A stretch of 64,000 nt of DNA from Candidatus Eiseniibacteriota bacterium (GCA_003235575.1 QJVW01000115.1:12290-76289); one strand, 5' to 3'; shown: positions 24,349 through 47,993, numbered from the stretch's first letter. The notes: generated by a model not told the origin, from the sequence alone. Translations and numbers: made by a program.

Positions 24349-25039
24349 CGGCAAAGAGGCTGTGGGGCGGATCACCCAGCCCGACACTTGATGCGCTCAA
24401 CATAATAGAGGGGTCCCGCGGAAACCCGCCCGGGCGCTCAACGGCGCCGCGCGGACGAGCCGCAATGGACCCCTAAGTAGATGGCGGGACGCCTCTTCGC
24501 CTCCTCGGCTTCACCACACCACGGCCCCGACTCCGCAGTGCTCTCCCCCAAACAGAGGACGCCCCGCCAAACCTATCGAATCAAGTAACTTACAAACAAC
24601 GCCATCCTGTTCCCTTGGAATCGCATCAACCGTGCCCATGTAGGGCTCCTGGGCTCAATCGGATTAATGTATTGCAAAATATTACGTTATGGATCTTCCA
24701 CGCCCGCCCGATGGGCGGATACGGGGGGAAGCCGTATCCCGGCGGCGACGCTCCAAGGCGCCATGGACGATCGATCGTCCGTAAATGCTTGTAATGAATA
24801 CACTAAGCGACCGTCCACCTCCGGACTCGCCGGCGTCCACGCCGGCTGCGCCTGCCGGATCTCTCGGTCGGGCATCACGGGAATGGCCCGCACCGCGCCC
24901 TTCCCAGTGGGGCCCCGATTCGGCCTGTGTTCCCGGCACAGAACGGTGGCCCGCATGCCGATCTCTGCTGGGGAACCCTACTCGCGCGCGTCTCATACGG
25001 ATCCGCGCGCGGATATCCCTTTGGCTCGGGAACGGTGCT

Positions 25040-25609: not shown

Positions 25610-27063
25610 TTCACTTGACGCTCCATCAGCTTTCCGCGCACCTCGACGGCGAGCTCGCCGAGGCATCCACGGAACTCGTGCGCCGTCACTTGTCGCAGTG
25701 TTCCGAATGCACGGAGCGCTTCGCGCTCATCGAGGCGCAGGAGGAGATCCTGGAATGCCTCCTGAACCACGACCCCGGCGAAGCGTTCTTCGACTACTTC
25801 GTGGACAACTTCGACTTCAGCAGCCGGAAAAGCGCGCCGCGACGGTGGCCGCGACCGGCCGCGACCCCGATCGACGCTCGCGATCCGGAGGGCGAAGGCG
25901 TCTCCCCCACGGAATCCGCGGAGTCCCCCTTCGCCGCCTCCGCCACGCCGATCGAACACGACCCGGCGCGCTTGATTCCGAATCAGGCAACGCCCGTCGG
26001 CGAGCCGTCGCCGCCACCGCCGTCCATGTCGGAATCGGAGCCCGTTTCCGTCGAGCACCGAAACCCGGCTCCGATCCAAGCGCCCATCGCCGTTCAGGTC
26101 CCGGCCCCGCGCCCGGTGAGCGTCGCCGCACCCGTGCCCGTCGCGCCGCGGGTTGCCGAGTCGGGTCGGCCCGCCTCGCCGACCCTCTACGGCCGCCGCG
26201 CGGAGGATCGGAAGCCGCCGGCCCGATGGCCGATGGCCGCCGGATGGATCGTCGCGGGAATCGTCGGCGTCATCGCGTTGAGCGTCGCCTTCGTGGGCAC
26301 GCGGCAGCGAGTAGCGCCGCTCCCCATTCCGACGGTCGCCACGCCACCGCCGCCCGAGGTCGTGTCGGACGCGCCGGCGGAGCAGGTGGCCACGGTGTCG
26401 CAACCCGAGGAAGCAATCGCGACGGCCCCTGCGGATACGCTTGTCCCGCCCGTGGAGGTCGCCGCCGTCGTGGATGCCGCAGCCGATCCCGAGCCGGCAG
26501 CTCCGTCCGCTCCCACGGTGGAGACGCGCCCAAAGGTGGAGCCGTCCAAGAGCGTCGAGCCGCCCCCCGCGCGGGAACCGGCACGGCGGGCGCCGATCGA
26601 GCCCCCGCCGGCGCCGCGGCCGCCCCGGCACATGGTGCCGGTGAGAACGATCATCACGAAGACGACGACCGCCCCCGAACCATCCGCTCCGACACCCACA
26701 CCGTCGGCGCCCTCTTCGTCGGAGCGAGACCGGCTCCCGTCCCCTTCCGCGGCTACGGTCGCGCGGGAGATGGCCCACGCCAAGGACCTGAGCCTGGTCG
26801 CCGCCCGCACGATGACGGCGCCGGCGTTCGAGTCGGCCGCGGAGGCCTGGGAAACGCTCCTGCCCCGGTTGTCGGAATCCCCTGAGAGCGAAGCGATCGC
26901 CCGCCGGGAGATCGCGCAGGCGCGATTCCAGGCATGGGCTGTCGAGGGGACCCCTGGCCGCAGGGAACTCGCCATCACCGCGGCACGCGCCTACCTCCTC
27001 TATGCCCCGCCGGGCCCCGACCGCGACCAAGGTTGGACCTGGCTGGGCCGCCTCAAGCGGTAG
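25606..27063 (+). CDS. Anti-sigma factor: N-terminal zf-HC2 (HxxxCxxC), single TM helix, and a long Pro-rich extracytoplasmic region with a TPR-like C-terminus
   Basis: The GTG start overlaps the sigma-factor TGA (GTGA overlap). VIHLTLHQLSAHLDGELAEASTELVRRHLSQCSECTERF is the zinc-finger anti-sigma motif. TM segment WPMAAGWIVAGIVGVIALSVAFVG. PAPRPPRHMVP is one of the Pro-rich repeats. Confidence 0.8.
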   Translation: MIHLTLHQLSAHLDGELAEASTELVRRHLSQCSECTERFALIEAQEEILECLLNHDPGEAFFDYFVDNFDFSSRKSAPRRWPRPAATPIDARDPEGEGVSPTESAESPFAASATPIEHDPARLIPNQATPVGEPSPPPPSMSESEPVSVEHRNPAPIQAPIAVQVPAPRPVSVAAPVPVAPRVAESGRPASPTLYGRRAEDRKPPARWPMAAGWIVAGIVGVIALSVAFVGTRQRVAPLPIPTVATPPPPEVVSDAPAEQVATVSQPEEAIATAPADTLVPPVEVAAVVDAAADPEPAAPSAPTVETRPKVEPSKSVEPPPAREPARRAPIEPPPAPRPPRHMVPVRTIITKTTTAPEPSAPTPTPSAPSSSERDRLPSPSAATVAREMAHAKDLSLVAARTMTAPAFESAAEAWETLLPRLSESPESEAIARREIAQARFQAWAVEGTPGRRELAITAARAYLLYAPPGPDRDQGWTWLGRLKR

Positions 27064-27211: not shown

Positions 27212-29623
27212 ATGGGCGTCATGGACGAAGGAATCCTTCGGGAGTTCCTTGCCGAGAGCCTGGAAGGGCTGGGGCAAGTGGAGCGCGATTTGGTTGCGCT
27301 CGAACGCGATCCCGGCGACGTCGCCAAGATCGGCGGCGTCTTTCGCGTGTTCCACACGATCAAGGGAACGTGCGGATTCTTCGGCTTCACGAAACTCGCC
27401 GCGGTAACGCACGCCGGCGAGAGCCTCCTGAGCCGGCTTCGTGGCGGCGAGCGGGCGCTCTCGCCGGAGATCGTGAACGCCCTCCTCGCTTTGGTCGACA
27501 CGGTCCGAGCCATTCTCGGCAGGATCGAATCGTCGAAGGAAGAAGGAGAGGGCAATTTCGCCCGCCTCATCCAAAGGCTCAACCGCCTGGAGGAGGAAGG
27601 CGCCACCGAAGCACCACCGGCCGCTACGGAACCGCCGCCCGCGCCGACGGCTGCGGGCGCCGCGACGGAGCCGCCCGCTCCCGAAGCGGACACGGCGGTC
27701 ATCCCGCGTGACGGCGGGCTCTTCGGACCCCTCATCGCGAGCGGAAGACTCGACCCCGAAGCGGTCGCGATCGCCGCGCAGCAGCAGCGGCTGGGCGACC
27801 CCCGGCGTCTGGGCGAGATCTTGGTGGACCATGGCGCGCTGCAACCCCAGGACATCCTGGACGCGCTCCTCGTGCGGAGCGAAATGGCGGCCAGCACCCT
27901 CGCGGAGTCGAGCATCCGGGTCGACGTTCACCTCCTGGATCTCCTGATGAACCTTGTGGGCGAACTGGTTCTCGCCCGCAACCAGCTGCTTCAAAACGTC
28001 GCCTCGCAGGATCACGCGGATCTACCCGGAACGGTGCAGCGGTTGAATCACATCACGACCGAGCTGCAGGAGCGGATCATGAAGACCCGCATGCAGCCGA
28101 TCGGCAACGTATGCAACAAGCTCCCGCGCTTGGTGCGCGACATCGCGTCCGCCTGCGGGAAGCAGGTCCGGCTGGAGCTGGAGGGGGTCGATACCGAACT
28201 GGACCGCACGATCATCGAGGCGATTCGCGATCCGTTGACGCACCTCATCCGCAACGCCATCGACCACGGCATCGAGACGACGGAAGCGCGCGTCGCGAAC
28301 GGCAAATCGCCCGAAGGTCTGCTCGTGGTTCGCGCCTTCCACGAAGGCGGGAAGGTGCACCTCGAGGTCGAGGACGACGGCGCGGGGCTGTCCCTCGAGT
28401 CCATTCGCGAACGGGCGCTCCGCCAGAACCTCATTCCGGCGGACCGCGCGGCGCGCATGACGGAGCGCGACTGGTACAACGTGATCTTCCTGCCCGGGTT
28501 CACGACCGCCGCGCGCGTGACGAACGTCTCCGGGCGCGGCGTGGGCATGGACGTGGTGAAGACGAACGTCGAGCGGATCGGCGGCGCGATCGACGTCGAC
28601 TCGAGGCCCGGACACGGCACCACGATGCGGATTCGGATTCCCCTCACGCTCGCCATCGTGCCCGCGCTCGTTATCTCGGTGGACGGCGAGCGCTACGCCA
28701 TTCCGCAGGTGAACCTGATCGAGTTGGTCCGCGTGGAGCGCGCCGAGGCGTCCACGCGCCTTGTGACCGCGTACGACGTGCCGGTGCTTCGCTACCGCGA
28801 GCGGCTCCTTCCCCTGCTCGACCTCCGAGCCATTCTCGGCACCGCGCCGACGCCCGCGCGCGCGGATGGCCCGGAGGGTGACGCGATCTCGATCGTCGTG
28901 CTCCACGCCGACGGTCTCACGGTCGGCCTCGTCGTGGACACCATCGAAGCGTCGCAGGAGATCGTGGTGAAGCCACTGGGCGAGCCGCTTCGCCAAATTC
29001 CCGTGTTCGCGGGCGCGACCATCCTCGGCGACGGCGCGGTCGCGCTCATCCTCGACGTCCCCGGGCTGGCCCGCCACGCCAGGATCTCCCGCTCGGACGG
29101 CGAGATCGAGGAGAGCGCGCCGGCGGAGAACGTGGACCGCGGCGCCATGGATCGCCAGACCCTGGTGGTGTGCACGGTCGGCCCGCGCTGGACCGTCGCG
29201 ATCCCGCAGACGCAGATCGCGCGGCTGGAGGAATTCCGCCGGGCGGACGTGGAGCGGTCGGGCGATCGCGCCATCATCCAGTACCGGGGCGGTCTTCTCC
29301 CGCTCGTGTCCCTTGGCGCGCTGCTCGATCTGGGCGGAACGCACGCGGCGACCGACATCGAGTGGATCGGCGACGCCGACCCCCTCCGCGTGGTGGTTCA
29401 CGAGCGCGAGGGACGCGCCGTCGGTCTGATCGTGGAGGCCGTCGTGGAGATCGTCGAAGAGCGCGTGGCGCCGGGAGGCGGCGACGCATCCACCGGGTTC
29501 GCCGGCGCGGTGGTGGTGCGCGGATCGGTCACGGAATTGATCGACCTCGAAGGGTTGCTGCGGCAGGCGGACGTTCATCGCCACAGCGCGCTGGCGGCGT
29601 CGGCGGAAGGGGGCGCCCGATGA
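27212..29623 (+). CDS. cheA: Chemotaxis histidine kinase CheA with two C-terminal CheW-like (P5) domains
   Basis: P1/Hpt FRVFHTIKGTCGFFGF; P3 dimerisation VDVHLLDLLMNLVGELVLARNQL; P4 N-box HLIRNAIDHGIE, G1 VEDDGAGL, G2 GRGVGMDVV, then GTTMRIRIPLTLAI; CheW domain 1 (ISIVVLHADGLTVGLVVD...) and CheW domain 2 (QTLVVCTVGPRWTVAIP...LIVEAVVEIVE). Confidence 0.95.
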   Translation: MGVMDEGILREFLAESLEGLGQVERDLVALERDPGDVAKIGGVFRVFHTIKGTCGFFGFTKLAAVTHAGESLLSRLRGGERALSPEIVNALLALVDTVRAILGRIESSKEEGEGNFARLIQRLNRLEEEGATEAPPAATEPPPAPTAAGAATEPPAPEADTAVIPRDGGLFGPLIASGRLDPEAVAIAAQQQRLGDPRRLGEILVDHGALQPQDILDALLVRSEMAASTLAESSIRVDVHLLDLLMNLVGELVLARNQLLQNVASQDHADLPGTVQRLNHITTELQERIMKTRMQPIGNVCNKLPRLVRDIASACGKQVRLELEGVDTELDRTIIEAIRDPLTHLIRNAIDHGIETTEARVANGKSPEGLLVVRAFHEGGKVHLEVEDDGAGLSLESIRERALRQNLIPADRAARMTERDWYNVIFLPGFTTAARVTNVSGRGVGMDVVKTNVERIGGAIDVDSRPGHGTTMRIRIPLTLAIVPALVISVDGERYAIPQVNLIELVRVERAEASTRLVTAYDVPVLRYRERLLPLLDLRAILGTAPTPARADGPEGDAISIVVLHADGLTVGLVVDTIEASQEIVVKPLGEPLRQIPVFAGATILGDGAVALILDVPGLARHARISRSDGEIEESAPAENVDRGAMDRQTLVVCTVGPRWTVAIPQTQIARLEEFRRADVERSGDRAIIQYRGGLLPLVSLGALLDLGGTHAATDIEWIGDADPLRVVVHEREGRAVGLIVEAVVEIVEERVAPGGGDASTGFAGAVVVRGSVTELIDLEGLLRQADVHRHSALAASAEGGAR

Positions 29624-34310: not shown

Positions 34311-34793
34311 ATGAGCACGGCGACCATCGATCTTCAGGAATGGCTGACCTGCCTCACCGATGTGGCGAACGATTTGGCCACGAACCATCTCCGGTTCGAG
34401 AGCAGCACGGAACAGGCCGACGCCACGATCGGGGCCGGCGTTCATCCGGCCGTCTACGTCGCCATTCTCGGCTCGCGAAACAGCATGCACCTGGGTCTCT
34501 CCGCCACCACGGCGGGATGTCATGCGCTGGCGCGCGCCTTTCTCGGCCTGCGCGGACGCGAGGATCTCACGGAGCGGGAAGTCATCGACGGGATGAGCGA
34601 GATCCTGAACATCCTGGCGGGCAAGGTGAAGTCCCGCATGTCGACGCGCGATGGATCCCTGAAGCTGGGGCTTCCGATGTTCGTGGCCGGCACCGTCGGG
34701 CACGGCGAGGGCGTCGAGAGGGCGGATCACGAGGTGTTCCTGGGACCGGTCCCGTGCCGGCTCCACGTCTTCCGGCAGAGCCGATCGGTGTAA
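34311..34793 (+). CDS. cheX: CheX/CheC-family chemotaxis phosphatase (CheY-P phosphatase)
   Basis: 160 aa; MSEILNILAGKVKSRM is the characteristic CheX motif and AVYVAILGS...MHLGLS fits the fold. The real ATG is internal to track ORF 34146. Confidence 0.7.
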   Translation: MSTATIDLQEWLTCLTDVANDLATNHLRFESSTEQADATIGAGVHPAVYVAILGSRNSMHLGLSATTAGCHALARAFLGLRGREDLTEREVIDGMSEILNILAGKVKSRMSTRDGSLKLGLPMFVAGTVGHGEGVERADHEVFLGPVPCRLHVFRQSRSV

Positions 34794-34807
34794 GGGGGCC
34801 TACGGTC

Positions 34808-36202
34808 ATGAATCGTCGATCACCAATGTTCACGCGACGCGCGATCCTCTTGATCCCCTTCCTCGCGGCGTTGGTGTTCGCGGTCCCCGCAGCCGACCGG
34901 GCGGACGCAAGCCGGGGGCGGAGCAACCTGGTCCTCGCGGGCGGCGTTCCCGGGGAAACCTTCGGATGCTCCGTGGCCTCCGCGGGCGACGTCAACGGCG
35001 ACGGGTATGTGGACGTCATCGTAGGCGCCTACCAGAGCGGAACCGCCGGGAGCCCAACCGGTCGCGCCTACATCTATTACGGCGGTCCCGGCGCCGACGA
35101 GCGGGCGGACGTGATCCTGACGGGAGAAGCCGCCGGGGACGCGTTCGGCGTCAGCGTGGCCGGCGCGGGCGACGTGAACCGGGACGGCTATGCCGACGTC
35201 ATCGTCGGCGCCTATGAGAACGACGGTCGCGGCGCGAACGCCGGCCGCGCGTACATCTATTTCGGCGGACCGAAGATGGATGCCAGCGCCGACGTCGTCC
35301 TGAACGGCGAAGCGGCGGGCGACGCATTCGGGTATTCCGTGGCGGGCGCGGGCGACGTGAACCGTGACGGCTATGCCGACGTTCTGGTGGGAGCGTACGA
35401 GAACAGCGCCGCCGGCCCCGGCGCCGGGCGCGCGTATCTGTACCACGGCGGGCCGAAGCCCGACGCGGTGGCCGACGTGATCCTCACCGGTGAAGCCGCG
35501 GGAGACCGTTTCGGCATCTCGGTGGCGGGCGCGGGCGACGTGAACGGCGATGGATTCGCCGATGTCGTCGTCGGCGCCTACCAGAACGACGCCGGGGGCC
35601 GGGATGCCGGGCGCGCCTACGTGTACTACGGCGCCCCGCGCCTGGGCATGCGACCGAACGCCGTCTTGACGGGATCCGCGGAGGGCGACGCCTTCGGCTT
35701 CGCCGTCGCGGGCGCCGGAGACGTCAACAAGGATGGGTTCGCGGACGTGATCGTCGGCGCCTACCACAACGACGCCGGCGGAAAGGACGCCGGAAGGGCG
35801 TTCGTCTACTTCGGGGGCGCGAACTTCTCGACGAAGGCTGACGCCGTTCTGACCGGCGAGGGCGCGGGCGATGCCTTCGGATACGCCGTCGGCGCCGCCG
35901 GCGACGTGAACGCCGACGGCTACGCCGACCTCTTGGTCGGCGCGTATGGAAACGACGCGGGCGGGTCCGCCGCGGGCCGGGCCTACGTGTTCTACGGGGG
36001 CACGACGCCCCACCTGACCTCCGACTTCAGCCTCACCGGTGGATCGACCCTCGACAACCTCGGCTTCGCGGTCGCGGGATCCGCCGACCTGAACGGCGAC
36101 GGCTACGCGGATATCGTCGTCGGGGCGCCCTACAGCGACTCGGGGCGCGCGCACGTCATCACGACGGTGGGCGCGAACTCCCGCCCCGTCGCCTCGCGCT
36201 AG
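34808..36202 (+). CDS. Secreted FG-GAP repeat (integrin-alpha-like beta-propeller) protein with seven or more repeats
   Basis: Signal peptide MNRRSPMFTRRAILLIPFLAALVFAVPAADRADA. Roughly 60-aa repeats of F/YG.SVA.AGDVNGDGYADVIVGAY...GRAYVYYGG, the FG-GAP/Ca-binding D-x-N-x-D-G signature. It is the last gene of the che operon. Confidence 0.9.
   Translation: MNRRSPMFTRRAILLIPFLAALVFAVPAADRADASRGRSNLVLAGGVPGETFGCSVASAGDVNGDGYVDVIVGAYQSGTAGSPTGRAYIYYGGPGADERADVILTGEAAGDAFGVSVAGAGDVNRDGYADVIVGAYENDGRGANAGRAYIYFGGPKMDASADVVLNGEAAGDAFGYSVAGAGDVNRDGYADVLVGAYENSAAGPGAGRAYLYHGGPKPDAVADVILTGEAAGDRFGISVAGAGDVNGDGFADVVVGAYQNDAGGRDAGRAYVYYGAPRLGMRPNAVLTGSAEGDAFGFAVAGAGDVNKDGFADVIVGAYHNDAGGKDAGRAFVYFGGANFSTKADAVLTGEGAGDAFGYAVGAAGDVNADGYADLLVGAYGNDAGGSAAGRAYVFYGGTTPHLTSDFSLTGGSTLDNLGFAVAGSADLNGDGYADIVVGAPYSDSGRAHVITTVGANSRPVASR
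34930..36190 (+). repeat. Roughly 180-bp periodic coding tandem repeats (FG-GAP units) within the preceding CDS
   Basis: The repeated nucleotide blocks ggcgcgggcgacgtgaac(c/g)g(c/t)gacggctatgccgacgt recur about every 180 bp. Confidence 0.7.
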
Positions 36203-36263
36203 CAGCGATCTCCCGCTCCACCACGCACGACGAATCGCTTCGTAGGTGCCGATTCCGGATGAT

Positions 36264-36282
36264 GCGCGGATTCGTTCCGCGC
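36264..36282. terminator. GC-rich 7-bp hairpin (GCGCGGA ttcgt TCCGCGC) in the 90-bp gap between the convergent FG-GAP gene and the REC-GAF-HD-GYP gene
   Basis: Perfect stem seen in the sequence with no U-tract. It may act as a bidirectional terminator. Confidence 0.25.
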
Positions 36283-36292
36283 GGGGCCGGGC

Positions 36293-37966
36293 CTAGGACG
36301 TGTGCCCGGCTTCCTCGGGGTCAGCCGCTGTGCGCGGGGGCGCCCAGGGCGCCGTGTTCTTCACGACGGGGATGGTGCCTTTGTTGAGGGCTTCCACGAA
36401 CACGGAGACGACTTCCGGCGCGAACTGGGTTCCCGCCTTCTCGGTCATCTGCGCCACCGCCTGTTCCATGGTGAGCCCGGCGCGATAGGGGCGATCCGTG
36501 GTCATGGCGTCGAATGCATCCGCGACGTTCACGATCTTCGCCGCGAGCGTCATCTCCTCGCCCGTCAACCCATCGGGGTATCCCTTTCCGTCCACCCGCT
36601 CATGGTGGTGACGGATCATGTCGATGCAGCGCTCCAGGAAGCGGACGCCGCGGACCATCTCGGCGCCGCGGACGGGATGCATCTTGACCATCCTCCACTC
36701 CTCGTCGGTCAGCGCACCCGGCTTGTGGAGGACCTTGTCCTCGGTGTGTACCTTTCCGATGTCATGCAGGAAGGCGCCGAATTGGATCCGCTGCACCTCC
36801 TCGGGGTCGAACTCCAGCGCCCGCGCGATGCCCACCGAATAGGCCGCGACGCGCTCGGTATGGCCGTGCGTGTACGGATCCTTCTCTTCGATCCGGGAGA
36901 CGAGCAGCCGGACGGTGGAGACGTAGGCCTCCTGGAGATCCTTGAATAGCCGCGCGTTCTCGATGGCGATGCCGGCCGATTCCGAGAGCGCACGAAGCAT
37001 TTCCAGGTCCGCCGCCTGGAACTCCTGGCCGCTGACCTTCTCCCCGATCGCCAGGACGGCGACCAGCCGGTTCTTCATGATGACCGGCGAGACCAGCGTC
37101 AATCCCGCCGCGTAGAGCTGCCCCACCTCGCGCTCGAACCCGCGGTGGTGCTCCACGGAGGCGAGTCGCACCGGGCGCGGGTCCTCGCTCCCGGGTGCGT
37201 GGAGGGAACGAATGAATTCTCCGTTGTAGTCGAGCACGATCGAGCGCGCCTGCTCCTCCTTCATGCCCTTGAAATTGGAGGCGTCCAGGCGCGTCGGGCT
37301 CTCCCGGTCGTCGGTGAGGAAAAGACAGGCGGCGTTGACGCGCAGCTGGCCCATCACGCTGAGGATCAGCGTTCCCAAGAGGCCTTCGAGATCAAGCGAC
37401 GCGTTGAGCTGGTGCGTCAAGCCCATCAGCGTCTCGAGGCTGTAGACCTGGAACCGAAGCTCCTTGTTCCGGACCAGCAGATCCTCGCGGTTTCGCTGCA
37501 CCTCGGATTCCAGCTCCTGGTTCTTTCCCGCCAGGGCGTCGTGCCGCTCCAGCCGCTCGAAGATGCGACGGACCTTGATGAGCAGTTCCTTGGGAGAGAA
37601 CGGCTTCGTCAGGTAGTCGTCCGCGCCGTGCATCAGCCCCTGCAGCCGCGAGTCGACCTCCGCGCTGGCGGACACCATCACGATCGGGATATGCGCGGTG
37701 TCGCGCGTACTCTTCATCGCGGCGCACACTTCGAATCCCGTCTTCTTCGGCAGACGCAGGTCCAGGATCACGAGATGCGGCGGGGTGCGGCGCACGATCT
37801 CCAGCGCATCCTCCCCCGACATCGCGGTCAGGACGCGGTATCCGTTCTGGGTCAGCGAGATCTGAAGCAGCTCGACAACGCGGCGATCGTCGTCCACGAC
37901 GAGGATGGTCCGCTTTCCTTTCGCAGGACCGGCTTCGGTGGCCGGCCGGAGGCTTTCGGTGCTCAC
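36293..37966 (-). CDS. Response regulator REC-(coiled coil)-GAF-HD-GYP (c-di-GMP phosphodiesterase-type output)
   Basis: REC: TILVVDDDRRVVELLQ...HLVILDLRLPKKTGFEVCAAMK...DDYLTKPF. GAF-like middle region. HD-GYP: FLHDIGKVH ... IRHHHERVDGKGYPDGLTGEEMTLAAKIVNVADAFDAMT. Confidence 0.9.
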   Translation of the reverse strand: MSTESLRPATEAGPAKGKRTILVVDDDRRVVELLQISLTQNGYRVLTAMSGEDALEIVRRTPPHLVILDLRLPKKTGFEVCAAMKSTRDTAHIPIVMVSASAEVDSRLQGLMHGADDYLTKPFSPKELLIKVRRIFERLERHDALAGKNQELESEVQRNREDLLVRNKELRFQVYSLETLMGLTHQLNASLDLEGLLGTLILSVMGQLRVNAACLFLTDDRESPTRLDASNFKGMKEEQARSIVLDYNGEFIRSLHAPGSEDPRPVRLASVEHHRGFEREVGQLYAAGLTLVSPVIMKNRLVAVLAIGEKVSGQEFQAADLEMLRALSESAGIAIENARLFKDLQEAYVSTVRLLVSRIEEKDPYTHGHTERVAAYSVGIARALEFDPEEVQRIQFGAFLHDIGKVHTEDKVLHKPGALTDEEWRMVKMHPVRGAEMVRGVRFLERCIDMIRHHHERVDGKGYPDGLTGEEMTLAAKIVNVADAFDAMTTDRPYRAGLTMEQAVAQMTEKAGTQFAPEVVSVFVEALNKGTIPVVKNTAPWAPPRTAADPEEAGHTS

Positions 37967-39666
37967 GAGTTGGTCTCCATGGAAACGGACGTATGGTTTC
38001 CGGTCGCGTCGCGCGCGCCGGCGTGCTGGTCGGAATCGCGGGTCTCGGCGGCGTGACCGCCGTCCGGAATGGTCGCGCCGGCGCCCAGGGGGTCGAGCAC
38101 GGCCCGATCCACGGCATGACCGGAGGCGCGCTCGGCGGCGGCGGCCGACGCCTGTTCGGCCCGGAGGCGGGAACGGCGCTCGGTCTTCTCCAGCACGCCC
38201 AGGAACACCTCCACCATCGAGGGATCGAACGGGGCGCCCCAGTTTTCCGAGATGACCTGTCGCGCCTTGTCGCGCGGCAGGGCCCGCCGATAGGGCCGTT
38301 CGCTGGTCATCGCGACGTACGCGTCGACCAGGGAGACGATGCGGGCGCCGAGGGGAATGTCCTGCCCCTTCAGGCCCGACGGATAGCCCTCGCCGCCCCA
38401 GCGCTCATGGTGATTGCGCACGACCTCCACGACCTCGGGCGAGAAGTCCATCTCCTCGAGGATCTGCGCACCACGCGCCGGATGTTGCTTGATCAGCGAC
38501 CACTCCTCCGCGGAGAGATGCGCCGGATTCTTGAGGATGAGATGACTGACCGCCAGCATGCCGATGTCGCGGAGTGCCGCCCCGTAGATCAACGCCTTCA
38601 CGTCGGCGCGGGGCACTTGGAGGAGCCGCGCCATGGCGGTGACCAGGCGCACCACGCGCTCGGTGGATCCCTTCGCATACACGTCGCGGCTTTCGATGAG
38701 GGACATCATGCCCCGCACCACGCCCAGATTTCGATCTTCCATCTGGCGATGGAACCGGGCATTGGCGATCGCGACGGCGGCCTGGTGCGCCAGAATCGTG
38801 AGCAGGTCCCGCTCGTCCTCCTGGAAACCGCGGTCTCCGCCGCGCGCGCCCAGGAAGAGCATGCCGATCAGTTCGCGACGCACCCACAAGGCGACGCCCC
38901 ATTCGAGTCCGGAGGCGCGGAGCGTGCGCGCGGCGCCCGCGGCGTCGGGGAGCGCCTCGGCTCCGACCATCGGCTCCGCGGCCGCCGTGGGCGCCAGCGC
39001 CAGGGCGTCCTCGAGGGTCGTGAACGTGTCGGCCTCCGCCATGGCCGCGATCGAAGCCGCCGACAGTTTCGTGTCGCGGAATTGGTCCCGCGCGAATCCA
39101 CGAACCTGGCGGGGGATGAGAACGCCCTCGCGGTCCGGGTCGTCGAGAAAGAGCGCCAGGCGCTCGACGCCGAATTGGCCCATGACCGAGAGCCCGAAGA
39201 GGTTGAGCACCTCATCCAGATCGTGGGCGAGGTTCAGCGCCTGCGTGATCTCGAAGAGATTTCTGAACTCGACGATCTTCAGGCGCAGCTTGGTTTGCAG
39301 CGCGGCGTGCTCCGCCACGCTCGGCCCGCCGGGCGGAACCGACGCTTCCTCCGTGGGGGAGTTCGAGGCGTAGATCTGCGCGCCCGATTCGAGGAGCGCC
39401 TCGCGGACGCCGCCGCGAATCCCCCGGACGATGATCCGCCGGGCCGCGCCTTCGTAGGCGCGCGCTTGCCGCTGGATCACGGACACGGCGAGCGCGGAGA
39501 CGTCGCTGACCTCGTCGAAGTCGAGGTGCACTTCCCGCGCGTCCCGGGCCAGACATTGAACCAGGAGTTGATCGAGCGCGCGTGCGCCCGCGGCGTCGAC
39601 GACCCCCCGGAGCGAGAACCGGAACTCGTCGCGCGGTTCGCCGCGGACGAGGTGAAGGCCCTTCAA
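37963..39666 (-). CDS. STAS (anti-sigma-antagonist-like)-GAF-HD-GYP protein; probable TTG start overlapping the upstream stop (TTGA)
   Basis: STAS: LKGLHLVRGEPRDEFRFSLRGVVDAAGARALDQLLVQCLA...EVHLDFDEVSDVSALAVSVI...RIIVRGIRGGVREALLESG. GAF region. HD-GYP: AALRDIGMLAV ... VRNHHERWGGEGYPSGLKGQDIPLGARIVSLVDAYVAMT. The track ORF extends to 40500 through roughly 270 aa of Arg/Gly-rich sequence that overlaps the upstream gene and is implausible. Confidence 0.75.
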   Translation of the reverse strand: MKGLHLVRGEPRDEFRFSLRGVVDAAGARALDQLLVQCLARDAREVHLDFDEVSDVSALAVSVIQRQARAYEGAARRIIVRGIRGGVREALLESGAQIYASNSPTEEASVPPGGPSVAEHAALQTKLRLKIVEFRNLFEITQALNLAHDLDEVLNLFGLSVMGQFGVERLALFLDDPDREGVLIPRQVRGFARDQFRDTKLSAASIAAMAEADTFTTLEDALALAPTAAAEPMVGAEALPDAAGAARTLRASGLEWGVALWVRRELIGMLFLGARGGDRGFQEDERDLLTILAHQAAVAIANARFHRQMEDRNLGVVRGMMSLIESRDVYAKGSTERVVRLVTAMARLLQVPRADVKALIYGAALRDIGMLAVSHLILKNPAHLSAEEWSLIKQHPARGAQILEEMDFSPEVVEVVRNHHERWGGEGYPSGLKGQDIPLGARIVSLVDAYVAMTSERPYRRALPRDKARQVISENWGAPFDPSMVEVFLGVLEKTERRSRLRAEQASAAAAERASGHAVDRAVLDPLGAGATIPDGGHAAETRDSDQHAGARDATGNHTSVSMETNS

Positions 39667-41369
39667 GCGTCCGCTCCTGCCGCCGGCGCGGCGGCGCCGA
39701 TGGCGTCCGGCGTTCCCAGGAGGCGGAGACGGCGCATGACGGCCGCCGGGTGGAGCACCAGCGTCACTTGGTTGTCGACCCCCACGATACCGCCCAGAAC
39801 CTCCTCGACCGGGTAGAGCCGCGGTGGAAGGGGGGAGAGCCGCGCATTCTCGCGCCAGACGATACGGTCGAAGCCCACCGCGCCGGTCTCCTTGCCGGAG
39901 CGAAGGATCGCCAGCGGGCCGTCGGCCGGTTGCGGCGGCGAATCGTCCGCCTGCCCCGGACCGAACAGCGACGCGAGGGGCACGACCCTGGCGCCACCTC
40001 CCCCTCCCGACCAGACCAACTCCTCGCGGGAAGCGTGGATTCGTTCGATGGCGCTCCACGGGAGCGCGATCCGCTGTCCCGAGACTTCGACGATGAGAAA
40101 ACCCCGCAGCGAACGCGCCATGGGAAACTGCATGTGCACGACCGAGGTCCCGGGCTTCCCGCCCTGATGCGTGACGAAGCCGCCTAGCTCTTCGAGCGCG
40201 GATTCCAGCCGCGCGATGGATTCCGAATCGAAGGCGACGCGGCCCTCGATCGCCAACCTCGCCTCCAAGCCCTCGCGCGCGGCGGTGACGCGAAGCTGGC
40301 GCGACGTCTCCCCTTCCGGAGATTCGGCCGTTTCCAGAACGCGATAGATCGACGGCAGGAGCATCGATCCGATTTCGGGCTCGAAGCCGACGCCGCCCGT
40401 GTGCACCGTCAGGACGCTTCGCCGCTCCGCCGTGTCGCGGCGGGCCGCGGCGGCGTAGATCTCGTCCACGAATCGGTCCAGCGGATCCAGGAATTCCCAC
40501 AGCAGGTGTTCATCCAAGTCGCGCGCCCGACGTTCCAGCGAGTACTGAACGCCCAGCAGTTGATGGATGTCGTGGGACAGCGAACGCATCCCGGTCGCGA
40601 CCTCCTCCAGGGTCTGATGCACCTCGATGGCCCGGGCCGTGACGTTTTGGCGGCGCGCGGGCGACGGTTCCGCCGGACCGCGACCGCTCGACGCAGTCTC
40701 GCCGGGAGCCAGACGGTCGGGATCGATGGCCTTCATGAACTGGTCCCACTCCGCCAGCACCCGCTGGACGGATCGGAGCATCGCGCCCAACCCCTCGCTG
40801 ATCGAGCCCATGCGGTCGTTCTGGCTGACGAGCGAGGACTTGATCTCAAAGGTCAGCGCGAGCAGGTTCTCCCGCGGCGCCATGTCCGGCGTCGCCTCGT
40901 CGATCACCCCGCGCGACGCGTTCAGCGCCTGCGCCTTCGCGCGGCTCAGCGAGGAACGCAGGTTGTCGATGGCGTCCCCGACGGAGGAAGCGTGGGCGAG
41001 CAGGGCGGCGAAGCCTTCGGTTCGCAATTGCTGCGCCAGGCGATCCTGCGCCTCGAGCGCCACGCGGCAATGCGCCACCAGCGTCTCGCGCTCCTCGGGG
41101 CGCACGTTGCCGAGCCGCACGAGGCTCTCCTGCAGCTCGCGCGCCAGGGACGCCACGCTCCCGATATCGAGCCAATCCGCGCTTCGCTCCACGAGCCGCA
41201 CGGAGAGTTCGACGATGGGGCCGAGTTCGTGCGATCCGAGATCGGGCTCCTCCGTGTCGAGGAAGGTGCGCACGATGTCGATCTCCTCGCGCATGAGCGC
41301 GCTGAACGTCGCGCTCAACCGAGACATGATTTGCTCGTTGCTGAGGTGTTCCGAAGCGGCGGTGCGCAT
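39663..41369 (-). CDS. CheA-like scaffold protein with degenerate Hpt and ATPase domains (no phospho-acceptor His, no N/G1/G2 boxes) and an intact C-terminal CheW-like domain
   Basis: The P1-like region ELSVRLVERSADWLDIGSVASLAREL aligns with FRVFHTIKGTCGFFGF of the canonical cheA in this window but has E/R where the His should be. The P4-like EFLDPLDRFVDEIYAAAARR lacks the N-box Asn/His, and SVLTVHTGGVGF replaces the DxGxG motif. ...GTSVVHMQFPMARSLRGFLIVEV then the CheW domain (IALPWSAIERI...GPLAILRSGKETGAVGFDRIV). Confidence 0.75.
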   Translation of the reverse strand: MRTAASEHLSNEQIMSRLSATFSALMREEIDIVRTFLDTEEPDLGSHELGPIVELSVRLVERSADWLDIGSVASLARELQESLVRLGNVRPEERETLVAHCRVALEAQDRLAQQLRTEGFAALLAHASSVGDAIDNLRSSLSRAKAQALNASRGVIDEATPDMAPRENLLALTFEIKSSLVSQNDRMGSISEGLGAMLRSVQRVLAEWDQFMKAIDPDRLAPGETASSGRGPAEPSPARRQNVTARAIEVHQTLEEVATGMRSLSHDIHQLLGVQYSLERRARDLDEHLLWEFLDPLDRFVDEIYAAAARRDTAERRSVLTVHTGGVGFEPEIGSMLLPSIYRVLETAESPEGETSRQLRVTAAREGLEARLAIEGRVAFDSESIARLESALEELGGFVTHQGGKPGTSVVHMQFPMARSLRGFLIVEVSGQRIALPWSAIERIHASREELVWSGGGGGARVVPLASLFGPGQADDSPPQPADGPLAILRSGKETGAVGFDRIVWRENARLSPLPPRLYPVEEVLGGIVGVDNQVTLVLHPAAVMRRLRLLGTPDAIGAAAPAAGADA

Positions 41370-41392
41370 GGAGTCGGCTCCCTTCGGCGTGC

Positions 41393-42922
41393 CTACCTGG
41401 GTCCGCCCGGCTGAATTCCCTCGAGCCAGTCGGGGATCTTTGGTTCGATCGGCGCCGTCGACGGGGTCTCGCCCTCCGGCTCGGCCGCGGCCGCGGGCGC
41501 GTCGTTCGCTTCCGGCACCGCGTCGTGAAGCGACGCGGGATCGACGGGGCGCGGCTCCACGTGATCTTTGGGCCCCGCCGGCGTGACGGGTTCGAACGGA
41601 TCGTCGAACGAAGCGTCCGCCGAGGGCGCCTCCGCCGGGGGCTCGAAGCGGCTCACCTCGTCCTCTACGGGAACGCCGTCCGCCGCGGCGCCGTCGGCCG
41701 GGCCTTCCGTGATCGCGGCGTCGTGGTTCTCGTCGATTTCGATCGCACTCATCCGTGACGGTTCGCTCTCCTCGACCCCGACGGGTTCGGCCACCGTCGG
41801 CGGCATCGCCGCTCCCTCTTCGAATTCTTCGATCGACGCACCGAGCCGCTCGCGCAACCCGCGGGTCCGCGCCACCAGCGATTCCAAGGACTCCAGCGCC
41901 GCCGGCGATACCGCCGGCGCGCCGACATCCGCATCGGTGCCGATCGACGCCACCGCGGCCTTCGCGTCCTCGCTGCTCGATTGAATGGAGGCGATGGTGT
42001 CGCCCACCTTGAATTCGATCTCGCTCGAGAGCCGGGAGATCGTGTCGGTGGCCTCGCGCGCGTACTCCGCGAGGCGACGCGTTTCCTCGGCGATCGACGC
42101 GAACGCCTCGCTGCCCGAGCGGGTGGCCTCGAGGGCCGCGTTCAGCGCCAGAAGCGTCGCGCGGTTGGTGACTTTCTCGGCCACGCCGGTCAGTTCGTTC
42201 GCGCGCATCAGCCCCGCGGCCAGATCCTCGATGCCGTCGGCGGCCGTGCGCACCAGCGCGTCGACCATCGCGGCGGGCGACCCGTTGCCGCCGTTCCCCG
42301 CCGGCGTGGAGCCCGACTGAAGCGTCCGCAGGACGGCGGCGAGATCGGTCTCGAGCGAGGCGAGCCCCTCGTCATAGGTCCGAAGCGTACCGACCGCCTT
42401 GCGCCCGACCTCGCGATCGTACGGCGCGGTGGGAGGAACGGCTTCGTCGGAGCCGATCAACTCATCGGCCGCGTACGCGGGACGCGGCTCATGAACCTCC
42501 GGCTCCGTTGGGGAGTCGTCCTGATCCCGGCGCACCTTCTCGAGCTCGAGGAGCGCCATCGCCGAGGCGCGTTGCGCGGCGGCGCTGGACGCGACCTCCC
42601 GGTAGAGCGACTGCCACGGTTCCGTGCGAAACGAGGCCGGCGGCTCGTTCGGCGCTTGGTCGGAAAGCGCGATGTCGAGTAGCGCGGACACCTTCGCGGC
42701 GGGCGCGCCCGCGGCCTGAGCGGCCAGCGCCGTGCAAATGCCGGCGCTGGCGAGGCCGACGACGACCCCGACGGCGACGCCAAGCGTTCCGCCGAGGCCG
42801 AACGCGGCTGCGGCAGCCGCGACGGCGCCGAGGAACGAGACGACGAACACGCCAGCGGACGGCTTGGCGGCGCCCTGCCTATCCGGCGTGTGCTTCCCCG
42901 ATTCGCGAGCGGCATCCGTCAT
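41393..42922 (-). CDS. Short membrane-anchored MCP-like protein (divergent MCP signalling tip, no HAMP, acidic/Pro-rich disordered C-terminal tail of about 200 aa)
   Basis: N-terminal hydrophobic segments VFVVSFLGAVAAAAAAFGLGGTLGVAVGVVVGLASAGICTALAA. MCP tip homolog ELTGVAEKVTNRATLLALNAALEATRSGSEAFASIAEETRRLAEYAREATDTISRLSSEI (compare [33 protein letters not shown] in the canonical MCP). The tail is rich in E/D/P/A. Confidence 0.7.
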   Translation of the reverse strand: MTDAARESGKHTPDRQGAAKPSAGVFVVSFLGAVAAAAAAFGLGGTLGVAVGVVVGLASAGICTALAAQAAGAPAAKVSALLDIALSDQAPNEPPASFRTEPWQSLYREVASSAAAQRASAMALLELEKVRRDQDDSPTEPEVHEPRPAYAADELIGSDEAVPPTAPYDREVGRKAVGTLRTYDEGLASLETDLAAVLRTLQSGSTPAGNGGNGSPAAMVDALVRTAADGIEDLAAGLMRANELTGVAEKVTNRATLLALNAALEATRSGSEAFASIAEETRRLAEYAREATDTISRLSSEIEFKVGDTIASIQSSSEDAKAAVASIGTDADVGAPAVSPAALESLESLVARTRGLRERLGASIEEFEEGAAMPPTVAEPVGVEESEPSRMSAIEIDENHDAAITEGPADGAAADGVPVEDEVSRFEPPAEAPSADASFDDPFEPVTPAGPKDHVEPRPVDPASLHDAVPEANDAPAAAAEPEGETPSTAPIEPKIPDWLEGIQPGGPR

Positions 42923-42938
42923 GACGTGCTCCCTTCCT

Positions 42939-43505
42939 TCATCGACTACCGAGCCCGCTCAGGCGAAAGGCGGCGGGCGGTGCGACCGAATCCATCAACG
43001 ACCAGTAATCCAGATGCCGTGCGTGGCGGCCTTGAACGTCGTACACGGCGAGGACGGCGGGCTCGCCGTCGGCGGGCGCCGCCGTGGCGGAGGCCTCCAA
43101 CTCGGAGAGGTCGGCCACGTCGCCGGCCGCGACGGCCGGAGGAACAGGCTCGGGGTCCGGAACGGCGCACTTCAGTTCCACCACGTCGCGCCCCGGAATC
43201 AGCCGCGGCATGCCACGAACCAGGAGCGCGATCCGATCGGTGCCCCGCTCGAGGACCACGGCATAGGCGGGCGGGCTCGGCGATGCGTCGCCGCCGAGCG
43301 CGGATTCGACGTCGATCGCCGGCACGACGGAGCCGCGAAACGCGACCACGCCGGCCATCGGAGGAACGCGTCCCGGAAGCCGCGCCAGGTGCTCGGCCTC
43401 GAGCAGTCCCGCCACTTCGTCCACGGGGGCGGCGAGAAGTTCGTCGCCGGCCTCGAAGACGACGAGGCCGCGCACGCCGAGCACCGTCCGCCTTGGTTGA
43501 TCCAT
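42939..43505 (-). CDS. CheW-like coupling protein with an acidic C-terminal extension (start at the internal MDQPRR)
   Basis: MDQPRRTVLGVRGLVVFEAGDELLAAPVDEVAGLLEAEHLARLPGRVPPMAGVVAFRGSVVPAIDVESALG...AYAVVLERGTDRIALLVRGMPRLIP is a CheW fold. The track ORF starts 21 codons upstream. Confidence 0.75.
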   Translation of the reverse strand: MDQPRRTVLGVRGLVVFEAGDELLAAPVDEVAGLLEAEHLARLPGRVPPMAGVVAFRGSVVPAIDVESALGGDASPSPPAYAVVLERGTDRIALLVRGMPRLIPGRDVVELKCAVPDPEPVPPAVAAGDVADLSELEASATAAPADGEPAVLAVYDVQGRHARHLDYWSLMDSVAPPAAFRLSGLGSR

Positions 43506-43965
43506 GGAGCCACTCCGTCCTTTGAAGGCGAGCTGAAACCTGTACGAATGAAGAAAGGCAAGTAACATGCCACGAACGACTTCCGCCGAATCACGCTAAC
43601 CCTTTGCCGTGTAGCGGCTTCGTACTCATCCAATCGGCAGGTTCCCGGCGTTGTGGAGGGCTTTTGGTCAGCGGCCGCCGGGCGTGTTGCAATCCTGGCC
43701 GTATTCCGCAATCCCCCACCCATCCGGCGGTAAAACACACCCACCCAGAGGGCTAAATCCGACCAGAGGCTGGGCTGATCGAGCCCTTCGGCGCCGCCGC
43801 GGCGGCGAATCCACTTGCGACCATGTTGTTGTAAATAAATCGCTTACACGTCTGGAGCGACGTTTCCGGCGGCTCGGCACGCGGCGTGCAGTGGCAGGGA
43901 GTCGAAGGCCGCGGAGATCGGAAGCCGCGGCGAGGAGTGGACGGAAAAGAGAGGGGGGCAGGGAC

Positions 43966-44745
43966 ATGGCGGGAACGAGAAAGGCGGTCGCGGGCAAGGC
44001 AGCTCTCCGGAAGATCCGGCCGCACGCCTATGTAGCCATGAATTGCCTTCTTCTTACTCGGGCGGAAGGTACGCCTCAAAACGGTGATCCCTTGCCGCAG
44101 GAGGATGTGAATGCGTACCTCGACGCGTTGCGCGACCAATTGGAAGCCAACGTGCCGCTTCCGCCCGAGCGGACCCGTCTTCTATCTCGGTACGACATCG
44201 CCGCGTGGCGGCGTCTGGCCGGCGCGACCCACGGCTCGCTGAAGTACACGATCTACCGGACCGCGCAAGACCTGCTGCTCGTGTCGGTGGGGATCTTCGA
44301 ACAGAGCGGTCCGTACGTGCCGTCCCGTCGCGAGGGAATGCTGCCCGGCGAGGAAGCCGACATGGGACGGAGTCCGGGCTGGTACCACTTCTCGTACACG
44401 TACGGCGAGCTTCTCGAGAATCCGACGTCGACGTTGGGAACGGTGCTCGAGAAGCTGACCGTGAGCCTGGAGCGGTACCACAAGATGCTCTCGCACATGA
44501 AGGGCGAGTACTGGAGCATGGTGTCGCGGTTCGAGGATGCGCACGTGCTTCGGCTCGAGCGCACGGTGGACGAGGACGCCAGGGAACAGGCGATCCGTGA
44601 AATGCAGGACCGTCTTCTCGACGCCTACGGCGAATGGAAGCGCACCGGGCAACGGAAGCACTTGGACCAAATCCGCGGCATCGCGCGCGAGATCCGCACG
44701 CTTTCGCCCGACTTCACCTTCTCGCTTCCCGCGGGGAATCCCTAG
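43966..44745 (+). CDS. Hypothetical protein (259 aa), divergently transcribed from the Che-like cluster; start at the internal MAGTRK
   Basis: Amino-acid composition is not antisense-like (Y, W, K, E-rich: GWYHFSYTYGELLENPTSTLGTVLEKLTVSLERYHKMLSHMKGEYWSMVSRFE). I recognise no family. The upstream 105 codons of the track ORF are Arg/Gly-rich. Confidence 0.55.
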   Translation: MAGTRKAVAGKAALRKIRPHAYVAMNCLLLTRAEGTPQNGDPLPQEDVNAYLDALRDQLEANVPLPPERTRLLSRYDIAAWRRLAGATHGSLKYTIYRTAQDLLLVSVGIFEQSGPYVPSRREGMLPGEEADMGRSPGWYHFSYTYGELLENPTSTLGTVLEKLTVSLERYHKMLSHMKGEYWSMVSRFEDAHVLRLERTVDEDAREQAIREMQDRLLDAYGEWKRTGQRKHLDQIRGIAREIRTLSPDFTFSLPAGNP

Positions 44746-45006
44746 CGCGAAGCGACCCAGACCCCCCGCGTGGCCTCCGGCCCCCGACCCGATGCAACAC
44801 CCGGAGGCCACGCACCCCCCCTGTGGCAGTGAGGCCGGTCCCGAAAGGGATCGGCCTTCTGCTTGTAGCGACATCGCCCGTTGCCGAGCCGATTCGCTTG
44901 AGCGGGTTGCGGGTGCCGCGGGAACGGAATAATCCCCTTCTGGACGCGAACAGAAAATGCCACGGTCCCGAAGGGGATTATTCCGCGCCCGCGGCGGCGG
45001 CGCGAA

Positions 45007-45456
45007 TCAGCCGGCCGGTCGTTCGTAGAGCGCGTCCGGACATCGCTCCTCGTTCCTGGAACCGTCCCCCCAGGCAATGGCGCGAAAGCCGTGGCGCTCG
45101 TAGAACCGGCGCGCGGGTTGGTTCTCCTGAAACGTGTACAGGCGGATGGGCCGCCCGGCGGCGAGCGCGATTCCCCGTTCGAGGAGCAGCGTTCCCATGC
45201 CGTGTCGGGCATGCGCCGGATCGACGTAGAGCTGATCGATCCAAAAGAATTCGCCGTCGCCGGAATACGCCATCATGGCGACGACGGTTTCGCAGTGGAC
45301 AGCCACAAGGGTGCGATGCGTTGGCACGAGGCGATCACGAATCCACGAACGCACCGCCTCCTCGGAGTGAGCCAGGTGCACGAATGGCATGCCGATACGC
45401 CACGCACGAAGGTACAGGTCGGCGATCGCATCGCAGTCGGTGTGGACCGCGACGCG
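45007..45456 (-). CDS. GNAT family N-acetyltransferase (likely TTG start; the track ORF extends to 45591, overlapping guaB)
   Basis: VAVHTDCDAIADLYLRAW...VAMMAYSGDGEFFWIDQLYVDPAHARHGMGTLLLERGIALAAG...ARRFYERHGFRAI; the GNAT acetyl-CoA-binding motif A (Q/RxxGxG/A). Confidence 0.7.
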   Translation of the reverse strand, partial: RVAVHTDCDAIADLYLRAWRIGMPFVHLAHSEEAVRSWIRDRLVPTHRTLVAVHCETVVAMMAYSGDGEFFWIDQLYVDPAHARHGMGTLLLERGIALAAGRPIRLYTFQENQPARRFYERHGFRAIAWGDGSRNEERCPDALYERPAG

Positions 45457-45466
45457 CAATCGGACG

Positions 45467-47993
<2,527 letters not shown>

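Follow-up and report, generated by a model that had tools for sequence, protein, structure and literature searches.

A STAS–GAF–HD-GYP protein with a degenerate, most likely non-catalytic HD-GYP domain in a chemotaxis-like operon of a Candidatus Eiseniibacteriota bacterium

Introduction

Among the phosphodiesterases that act on cyclic di-GMP (c-di-GMP), the HD-GYP class is the one about which less is understood. Here we describe a gene whose product carries an HD-GYP domain that most likely does not work as such an enzyme. The gene lies on a stretch of 64,000 nucleotides from a Candidatus Eiseniibacteriota bacterium (GCA_003235575.1, QJVW01000115.1:12290-76289), which as a whole is called the window below. 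It occupies positions 37963..39666 on the minus strand, starts with TTG, ends with TGA and encodes 567 amino acids in the order STAS–GAF–HD-GYP (hereafter the target). It is the fourth of five closely spaced genes on the minus strand, which encode CheW, a protein resembling methyl-accepting chemotaxis proteins (MCP), a pseudo-CheA, the target and a REC–GAF–HD-GYP response regulator.

Several described systems are close to parts of this locus. In PmGH of Persephonella marina (PDB 4MCW/4MDZ) any one of the substitutions H189A, H221A, K225A and D308A essentially abolishes the hydrolysis of c-di-GMP, and RpfG, which lacks the equivalents of H189 and E185, is still active (both in PMC4159591). Binuclear and trinuclear HD-GYP subfamilies have also been described, as has a KPG motif that contacts the second guanine. 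Non-catalytic HD-GYP domains were shown to be receptors only recently, in 2026, for DvhD of Desulfovibrio vulgaris, a PAS–HD-GYP protein that has lost catalysis, is a c-di-GMP receptor and signals through the stalk helices in front of this domain (PMC13090378). PA2572 of Pseudomonas aeruginosa (REC–YN-GYP) has no detectable phosphodiesterase activity, regulates by protein contacts and has both functional and physical links with the MCP-like sensor PA2573. It is a precedent for a dead HD-GYP domain that works with chemoreceptor-like proteins. On the STAS side, CheS is a STAS-only protein of alphaproteobacterial che clusters that binds CheA and favours CheY1, and no anti-sigma function is known for it. 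Lastly, the Wsp system is a Che-like array whose response regulator WspR (REC–GGDEF) is a c-di-GMP-metabolising enzyme.

Results and Discussion

A Degenerate HD-GYP Domain

The HD-GYP domain of the target (residues 328-515; 38122..38685, minus strand) was recognized by Pfam HD_5 (E 5e-32, residues 320-483) and matched V-cGAP3, PmGH and PA4781 in the PDB. The GAF–stalk–HD-GYP core of PmGH aligns with target residues 265-494 (E 3.5e-29), preceded in the target by an additional N-terminal STAS domain and helix. To map the PmGH residues, we aligned the domain with HD-GYP enzymes of solved structure and with the neighbouring paralogue, and we counted residues in a family of 121 sequences, which are the query and 120 listed homologues. 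The HD dyad is absent, since the motif reads L-R366-D367-I-G-M, and the domain can be called an 'RD-GYP'. The codon for Arg366, in place of the His of the HD motif (PmGH H221), is at 38569..38571 on the minus strand (gcg on the plus strand, CGC on the minus strand). PmGH H189 corresponds to S334, K225 to M370, D308 to V451 and E185 to Y330, and the KPG motif is replaced by N380-P-A382. The equivalent of HHExh(D/N)GxGYP is HHERWGGEGYP, which retains HHE and GYP and has G424 where HHExxDGxGYP has its Asp.

These replacements, which the first-pass annotation had not noted, are largely fixed. Arg366 and Val451 occur in 121/121 sequences and Gly424 in 119/121; position 370 is Met in 115 and Thr in 6 and is never Lys, and position 334 is Ser, Asn, Gly, Thr or Ala, with His only once. 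What is kept is fixed as well. Five of the eight metal ligands are present, namely D367, H395, H419, H420 and D448 (PmGH D222, H250, H276, H277 and D305), and the replaced ones are the equivalents of E185, H189 and H221. These five residues are invariant, as is D328 (PmGH D183), and so are the c-di-GMP recognition residues G427-Y428-P429, I437 (equivalent to Ile294) and R457-x-Y-R460 (R457-P-Y-R460 in the target). In our own reading of the PmGH description, most of the five retained ligands belong to the G-site. Judged by alignment and by that description, the H-site and the catalytic residues are lost, and both the residues for c-di-GMP recognition and the ligands of the G-site are kept.

The domain is also the most conserved of the three globular domains, with 83/188 invariant columns compared to 21/136 for GAF and 15/103 for STAS. 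Per column, the stalk helix is the most conserved segment (mean top-residue frequency 0.89; 20/45 columns invariant). Fixed replacement of catalytic residues together with frozen ligand-recognition residues is the usual mark of an enzyme that has turned into a receptor or regulator.

The REC–GAF–HD-GYP paralogue directly downstream (36293..37966, minus strand; Response_reg 4e-28, HD_5 3e-39) provides an internal reference. It shares 32% identity with the target over 378 amino acids that cover the helix, GAF, stalk and HD-GYP, and it has a canonical receiver and the HD-GYP motifs GHTERV, LHDIGK, KPG, HHERVDGKGYP, ADAFDAMT and RPYR. At the position of PmGH E185 the paralogue, like the target, has a Tyr. 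Because it keeps all catalytic positions, the lineage shows no general relaxation at these sites. Since the equivalents of H189, H221, K225, D308, E185 and KPG are all replaced in the target, its domain is not expected to be an enzyme, and on these alignments it is most likely non-catalytic and no canonical phosphodiesterase. The HD-GYP part of the structural model has low confidence (predicted local distance difference test, pLDDT, 45-67) and is too unreliable to show the active-site geometry.

The target shares with DvhD an HD-GYP domain that has lost metal ligands, and binding by the target is predicted from its residues. DvhD, however, sits in the membrane (dCache–PAS), belongs to a Lap-like adhesin system and has SQ/MN in place of HD/HH, whereas the target keeps HH and the G-site, loses only the H-site and is encoded in a chemosensory context. 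With PA2572 it shares a degenerate HD motif, although the residues are YN there and RD here, and the N-terminus is a REC domain there and STAS–GAF here. Neither a pseudo-CheA gene nor that of an active paralogue shares an operon with PA2572.

Some points weigh against a domain that has lost activity and still binds its ligand. As five of the eight ligands remain and RpfG does without the equivalents of H189 and E185, residual or altered catalysis may persist. In addition, the altered KPG motif could weaken the binding of the ligand or change its specificity, given the contact described for this motif. The best surviving rival explanation is a phosphodiesterase that is still active on c-di-GMP, cyclic GMP-AMP or pGpG, with an atypical mono- or binuclear centre in which Arg366 takes the place of a metal-bound His, and which is gated by a GAF ligand and by contacts of the STAS domain. 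Such an enzyme would explain why D367, H395, H419, H420, D448, GYP and RxYR are invariant in a highly conserved domain, and the existence of both bi- and trinuclear subfamilies leaves room for it. However, the positions of H189, H221, K225 and D308 have all changed together, two of them in every sequence, with K225 never and H189 once canonical, and the adjacent paralogue keeps all four. We consider an active enzyme unlikely, and retain it as a rival because of the five remaining ligands and the two losses that RpfG tolerates.

Domain Layout and the STAS Fold

Pfam matches were judged by the curated gathering scores. Upstream of HD-GYP, the GAF domain scored above them (PF01590, 27.9 bits against 22.4; GAF_3 PF13492, 27.3 against 27.0), whereas the N-terminal region stayed below for STAS_2 (PF13466; 25.8 bits against 29.2, E 1.2e-5) and for STAS (PF01740; 19.9 bits against 22.6, E 6.5e-4). 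Both of these matches span residues 17-95, and by hand count a precomputed STAS or STAS_2 match is present in 106 of the 120 listed homologues. A family profile of the first 103 residues gave only weak matches to PDB sequences (E 0.1-0.7), five of six being STAS proteins in one register. These are too weak as proof, therefore a fold search was used instead and the profile was kept for the register.

An AlphaFold2 (AF2) model of residues 1-103, built with 21 family sequences, reached a pLDDT of 81.4 and a predicted template modelling (TM) score of 0.74, and has the strand and helix order of a STAS domain (β-β-α-β-α-β-α; 39358..39666, minus strand). Foldseek placed SpoIIAA (1thn_B) at the top of the PDB (TM 0.84, E 2.7e-6), followed among the top matches by RsbS, RsbV, TM1442 and the STAS domains of SLC26 proteins, and nearly all of the 36 PDB matches at E<=1e-3 are STAS domains. 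The first-pass annotation had proposed the order STAS–GAF–HD-GYP, to be abandoned if profiles did not support the STAS segment. Although the Pfam scores remain below threshold, the fold carries the STAS assignment, and Pfam GAF and HD_5 carry the rest of the order.

In the full-length model the STAS domain is followed by a short disordered linker, a 30-residue helix, the GAF domain, a 45-residue stalk, the HD-GYP domain and a disordered tail. The long helix (residues 117-146) and GAF (147-282) together occupy 38821..39318 on the minus strand, with a pLDDT above 90 for GAF, and the stalk from GAF to HD-GYP (residues 283-327) occupies 38686..38820 on the minus strand. The C-terminal tail (pLDDT below 50) is variable, low in complexity and disordered, yet residues 522-534 (38065..38103, minus strand) are conserved as A-x-L-D-P-L-x-x-G-A-T-I-P, with the family consensus A-E-L-D-P-L-S-S-G-A-T-I-P, D525 and P534 in 121/121 sequences and G530 in 115/121. 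This motif may be a docking peptide for some partner.

The STAS domain had further been read as the phospho-serine switch of anti-sigma antagonists. In the HMMER register against RsbS and 4hyl, the Thr of the family motif S-T-L-G falls on RsbS Ser59, the phosphorylated residue, and helix α2 starts at the corresponding residue 58 in the AF2 model. The target and its closest relatives carry Ala here (S57-A58; codon 39493..39495, minus strand). No HATPase-only kinase of the RsbW or SpoIIAB type and no PP2C/SpoIIE phosphatase was found among the scanned open reading frames (ORFs) of the 64-kb window, nor in the conserved neighbourhoods (L001-L004) among the related loci, which were examined over ±8-10 kb. 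With Ala58 and no such enzymes nearby, the switch reading was not supported for the target, whose STAS domain is probably not a phospho-switch. Compared with SpoIIAA, RsbV and RsbS, the target has the same fold (Foldseek TM 0.77-0.84), secondary-structure register and α2 N-terminus, but Ala replaces the acceptor Ser, the scanned surroundings encode neither a cognate kinase nor a phosphatase, the domain does not stand alone and its subfamily is isolated (next relatives at E 1e-13 and worse).

One count speaks the other way. Column 58 is Thr in 79, Ser in 31 and Ala in 7 sequences, and since 110/121 relatives keep Thr or Ser at the phospho-acceptor position, phosphorylation may matter in most of the family. 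A classical partner switch, which the first-pass annotation had implied, would involve an unlinked RsbW/SpoIIAB-type kinase and a PP2C phosphatase that act on the STAS domain in order to switch the C-terminal module or to sequester an anti-sigma factor. Besides the acceptor residues of the relatives, it is favoured by a fold that is closest to SpoIIAA, RsbV and RsbS and by SiaABCD, in which STAS is linked to c-di-GMP through phosphorylation, in trans. Against this stand Ala58 and the lack of a kinase and phosphatase in the regions scanned, and we regard it as distinctly improbable, more so than an active enzyme. For the target with Ala58 it is weak, and it is more plausible for the Thr58 majority.

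At 24785..27063 on the plus strand, directly upstream of cheA (27212..29623), the gene of an extracytoplasmic function (ECF) sigma factor precedes one for a zf-HC2 anti-sigma factor. This pair could be counted in favour of a partner switch, but its anti-sigma factor is of the zf-HC2 type and not a GHKL kinase. To our knowledge, anti-sigma factors of the zf-HC2 type are not STAS partners in partner-switching systems. A role of the target as anti-anti-sigma factor through this pair was judged unlikely, as the anti-sigma factor is of the wrong type.

CheS resembles the target in that a STAS domain is encoded in a che cluster, a location that is conserved for the target; the comparison is one of genomic context. 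It differs in that the STAS domain of the target is fused to GAF and a pseudo-HD-GYP and that the nearest neighbour encodes a pseudo-CheA.

Distribution and Novelty of the Architecture

The full architecture is present in at least 120 clusters at 90% identity, 52-100% identical to the target. Among 185,579 species-representative genomes it was found at 33 loci, the best of them 77% identical, most labelled Candidatus Eisenbacteria and a few carrying other labels of metagenome-assembled genomes. A search of the STAS profile against 1.84 billion representative proteins returned 10 matches below 1e-30, which are the family itself and mostly fragments; beyond the family, matches fall to 1e-13 and worse and are generic STAS proteins. 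Ten long proteins among these distant matches carry multiple STAS, TPR, HTH or phosphonate-binding domains and none has an HD-GYP domain, in a search that covers relatives of the target STAS and leaves unrelated STAS–HD-GYP fusions outside its reach. By these searches the family is tight and lineage-restricted, mostly to uncultured Candidatus Eisenbacteria.

Consistent with the first-pass annotation, which knew of no described signalling architecture of this kind, the literature searched contains no description of a fusion of STAS with HD-GYP (and GAF), and a census of HD-GYP architectures nowhere mentions STAS. In databases, on the other hand, the architecture is present in the clusters counted above, and some members are automatically named 'HD-GYP domain-containing protein/anti-anti-sigma regulatory factor'. 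Since automated annotation has assigned the two domains to some of these proteins, the architecture is known to databases and uncharacterised. What the searched literature does not describe is a STAS domain fused to GAF–HD-GYP, the fixed 'RD-GYP' pattern, and the invariant triad of pseudo-CheA, pseudo-phosphodiesterase and active phosphodiesterase with overlapping codons. The parts are all of known kinds, namely the STAS fold, the GAF–HD-GYP core, degenerate HD-GYP regulators, STAS proteins of che clusters and chemosensory control of c-di-GMP. Since the defining features of both are lacking, the target is neither a member of the anti-sigma antagonists nor of the HD-GYP phosphodiesterases.

That the gene is a decaying, functionless duplicate of its neighbour or a mis-called ORF, as the 32% identity and the lost catalytic residues might suggest, is effectively refuted by the conservation pattern, with a strong coding signature (GC at third codon positions 0.86), full-length ORFs kept intact across at least 120 clusters as well as 33 species-level genomes, and a degenerate domain that is the most conserved one and conserves its replacement residues, R366 and V451 even invariantly.

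Gene Model and Start Codon

The TTG start at 39666..39664 overlaps the TGA stop (39665..39663) of the pseudo-CheA gene in a TTGA junction (39663..39666, minus strand). The 20 nt that precede it are CCGGCGGCAGGAGCGGACGC, with a Shine-Dalgarno-like AGGAG at 39674..39678 on the minus strand and a spacer of 7 nt before TTG. GGAG or GAGG is also present in roughly two thirds of the homologous loci, as read by eye from 18-nt upstream strings. Between 39900 and 39531, TTG 39666 is the only in-frame start apart from GTG 39531 itself, which is the next one.

A database protein (P0001) is identical to the target over all 567 residues, and the N-termini of all 120 listed homologues align with its start as M/V/L-K-x-L-x-I/L-E-R. 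The homologous start overlaps an upstream TGA in 29/29 related loci, with ATG in 13 and GTG in 16 of them (ATGA or GTGA). For the 14 of these loci with a called start of the upstream gene, its product has 556-628 amino acids, and in 29/29 the upstream frame stays open over at least 571 codons. TTG is thus a minority choice of start codon, and across the loci compared the overlapping junction is a fixed feature of the family.

Two other starts were considered. The long ORF from GTG 40500 was rejected on codon-position GC and because no homologue has such an extension. The target itself (37963..39666) has a codon-position GC of 0.75/0.47/0.86, and its Arg/Gly-rich 5' extension (39667..40500, minus strand), which lies inside the pseudo-CheA gene in another frame, shows the non-coding pattern 0.83/0.74/0.52, compared to 0.74/0.52/0.83 in the pseudo-CheA frame over the same stretch. 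With these patterns, the extension to 40500 is a shadow of the pseudo-CheA gene. Starts further downstream, from GTG 39531 on, were rejected because the STAS fold would be cut and none of the homologues begins at such a position; GTG 39531 would remove residues 1-45, which is half of the fold. The start within the upstream stop codon and the artefactual nature of the longer ORF had both been proposed from the sequence in the first place, and all of these lines agree with them.

The Chemotaxis-Like Operon

The operon begins with a cheW gene (42939..43568, minus strand; PF01584, E 7.5e-15), conserved in L001-L004, followed in the same order in these loci by the MCP-like gene (41393..42922, minus strand), which has a partial MCPsignal match (PF00015, E 3e-11). 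The MCP-like protein matches the MCP signalling domain over no more than about 100 residues. Its N-terminal segment is hydrophobic and its C-terminal region long, acidic and rich in Pro and Ala, and it is no standard chemoreceptor.

The third gene (39663..41369, minus strand) encodes the pseudo-CheA of 568 amino acids. Its only Pfam match is a weak one to CheW (17.5 bits), with none to Hpt, the dimerisation domain or HATPase. A profile built from 15 orthologues matched only CheA chains in the PDB (E 8e-4), and hhalign aligned the protein to the window's own CheA over the end of P4 and P5 (E 5.9e-5), the CheW-like C-terminus. The CheA-like part is restricted to the last ~190 amino acids. The name pseudo-CheA fits this C-terminal third, as the P4-end and P5 are CheA-like and neither Hpt and dimerisation domains nor an ATP-binding one could be detected. 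Strong conservation within the family also marks the N-terminal ~370 residues (e.g. ASE..Q.M.R..ATF.AL and LWEFLDPLDRF). The family comprises proteins of about 556-628 amino acids (such as L001 8298..10004 and L003 8286..10004) and has no Pfam entry in public gene tables.

The TTGA overlap and the CheA-like C-terminus of the upstream product bear out the tight coupling to a CheA-like gene that had been noted before. Equally tight, and absent from that earlier account, is the coupling to the downstream REC–GAF–HD-GYP gene, whose GTG start (37966) overlaps the TGA of the target (37965..37963) in a GTGA junction (37963..37966, minus strand). This downstream overlap, ATG or GTG on TGA, is kept in every locus with that junction on the contig. 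With both stop/start overlaps, the pseudo-CheA, the target and the paralogue are therefore set up for joint production. A promoter and terminator scan of 35900..45500 found no terminator-like site on the minus strand inside the operon and no σ70-like promoter. The operon and its overlaps are conserved in loci of 53-77% identity.

Convergent to the operon is a complete cheA-W-mcp-Y-B-R-X cluster, followed by a gene for an FG-GAP protein, and this whole arrangement recurs in loci with target orthologues of 57% and 70% identity. The FG-GAP repeat protein looks secreted; its gene (34340..36202, plus strand) lies between the two convergent che operons and also occurs in L001 (13383..14792) and L003 (14640..16037), with an orientation that varies among loci. 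Its place next to the chemosensory genes appears to be conserved.

In two long assemblies the REC–GAF–HD-GYP gene is interrupted, being broken into three short ORFs of 167, 196 and 199 amino acids in L002 (11728..13388) and truncated to ~160 codons in L027/L028 (OY969801.1, CAVUEC010000011.1). In L001, on a contig nearly identical to that of L002, it is intact (552 amino acids). The broken copies are most likely indel errors of the assemblies and not real pseudogenes.

The operon shares with Wsp the combination of Che-like genes and a c-di-GMP-metabolising response regulator. It differs in that the output is a phosphodiesterase (REC–GAF–HD-GYP) and that the pseudo-enzyme paralogue and the pseudo-CheA have no Wsp counterpart.

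Other Signalling Genes in the Window

Elsewhere in the window, two tandem genes on the minus strand (11561..13948 and 8973..11564) encode HisKA–HATPase_c–GAF–HD-GYP proteins and overlap by 4 nt, followed by a stand-alone receiver gene (8536..8964, minus strand). Their HD-GYP domains keep the HD dyad (HDVGM), but the first His is missing, K225 is replaced by Met and D308 by Glu. Only one of the four GAF–HD-GYP proteins of the window, that linked to REC, has the full canonical set. A CdaA-type diadenylate cyclase gene (52235..53029, plus strand) is located about 12 kb away beside housekeeping genes for folate and FtsH/TilS. Cyclases of this type make cyclic di-AMP (c-di-AMP). The gene looks ordinary and shows that c-di-AMP is used by the organism as well.

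A Proposed Role in c-di-GMP Signalling

We propose that the target, without catalysis of its own, senses c-di-GMP and serves as an adaptor or regulatory subunit in a chemotaxis-like c-di-GMP pathway. The pathway would be Wsp-like in its logic, with a phosphodiesterase as output: CheA would phosphorylate the REC–GAF–HD-GYP response regulator, which would lower c-di-GMP. The target would be the cytoplasmic, non-catalytic partner of this regulator. Its pseudo-enzyme domain is predicted to still bind c-di-GMP or pGpG, as suggested by the retained recognition residues and G-site ligands, and would report the level of the messenger via the stalk helix, as in DvhD. The STAS domain would be a phosphorylation-independent docking module for CheA or for the pseudo-CheA scaffold, as CheS is for CheA, and the target may pair with its paralogue via the shared stalk–GAF–HD-GYP module. 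For the adaptor role, the heterodimer and the docking we argue from gene order and by analogy, and taken as a whole we hold the chances of this model to be evenly balanced.

A bolder version would make the target a new component of the chemosensory array. The STAS domain would then dock on a degenerate, GHKL-derived region of the pseudo-CheA, the protein would pair with its paralogue and the messenger would feed back on the array. The contact between STAS and pseudo-CheA would in that case be a fossil of the SpoIIAB–SpoIIAA type, in an array that now controls a messenger-destroying enzyme. As a joint reading this is speculative, and we think it unlikely to be correct in all its parts.

Conclusion

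The combination of STAS and HD-GYP adds to the published census of HD-GYP architectures. The family is a natural experiment in which active and inactive paralogues stand side by side with overlapping codons, in a chemotaxis-like operon with a kinase-dead CheA. Should the proposed roles prove true, it would show how a chemosensory array is wired to c-di-GMP degradation, how a pseudo-enzyme gives feedback or scaffolding to such a pathway, and that STAS domains can be used independently of phosphorylation in chemosensory arrays.

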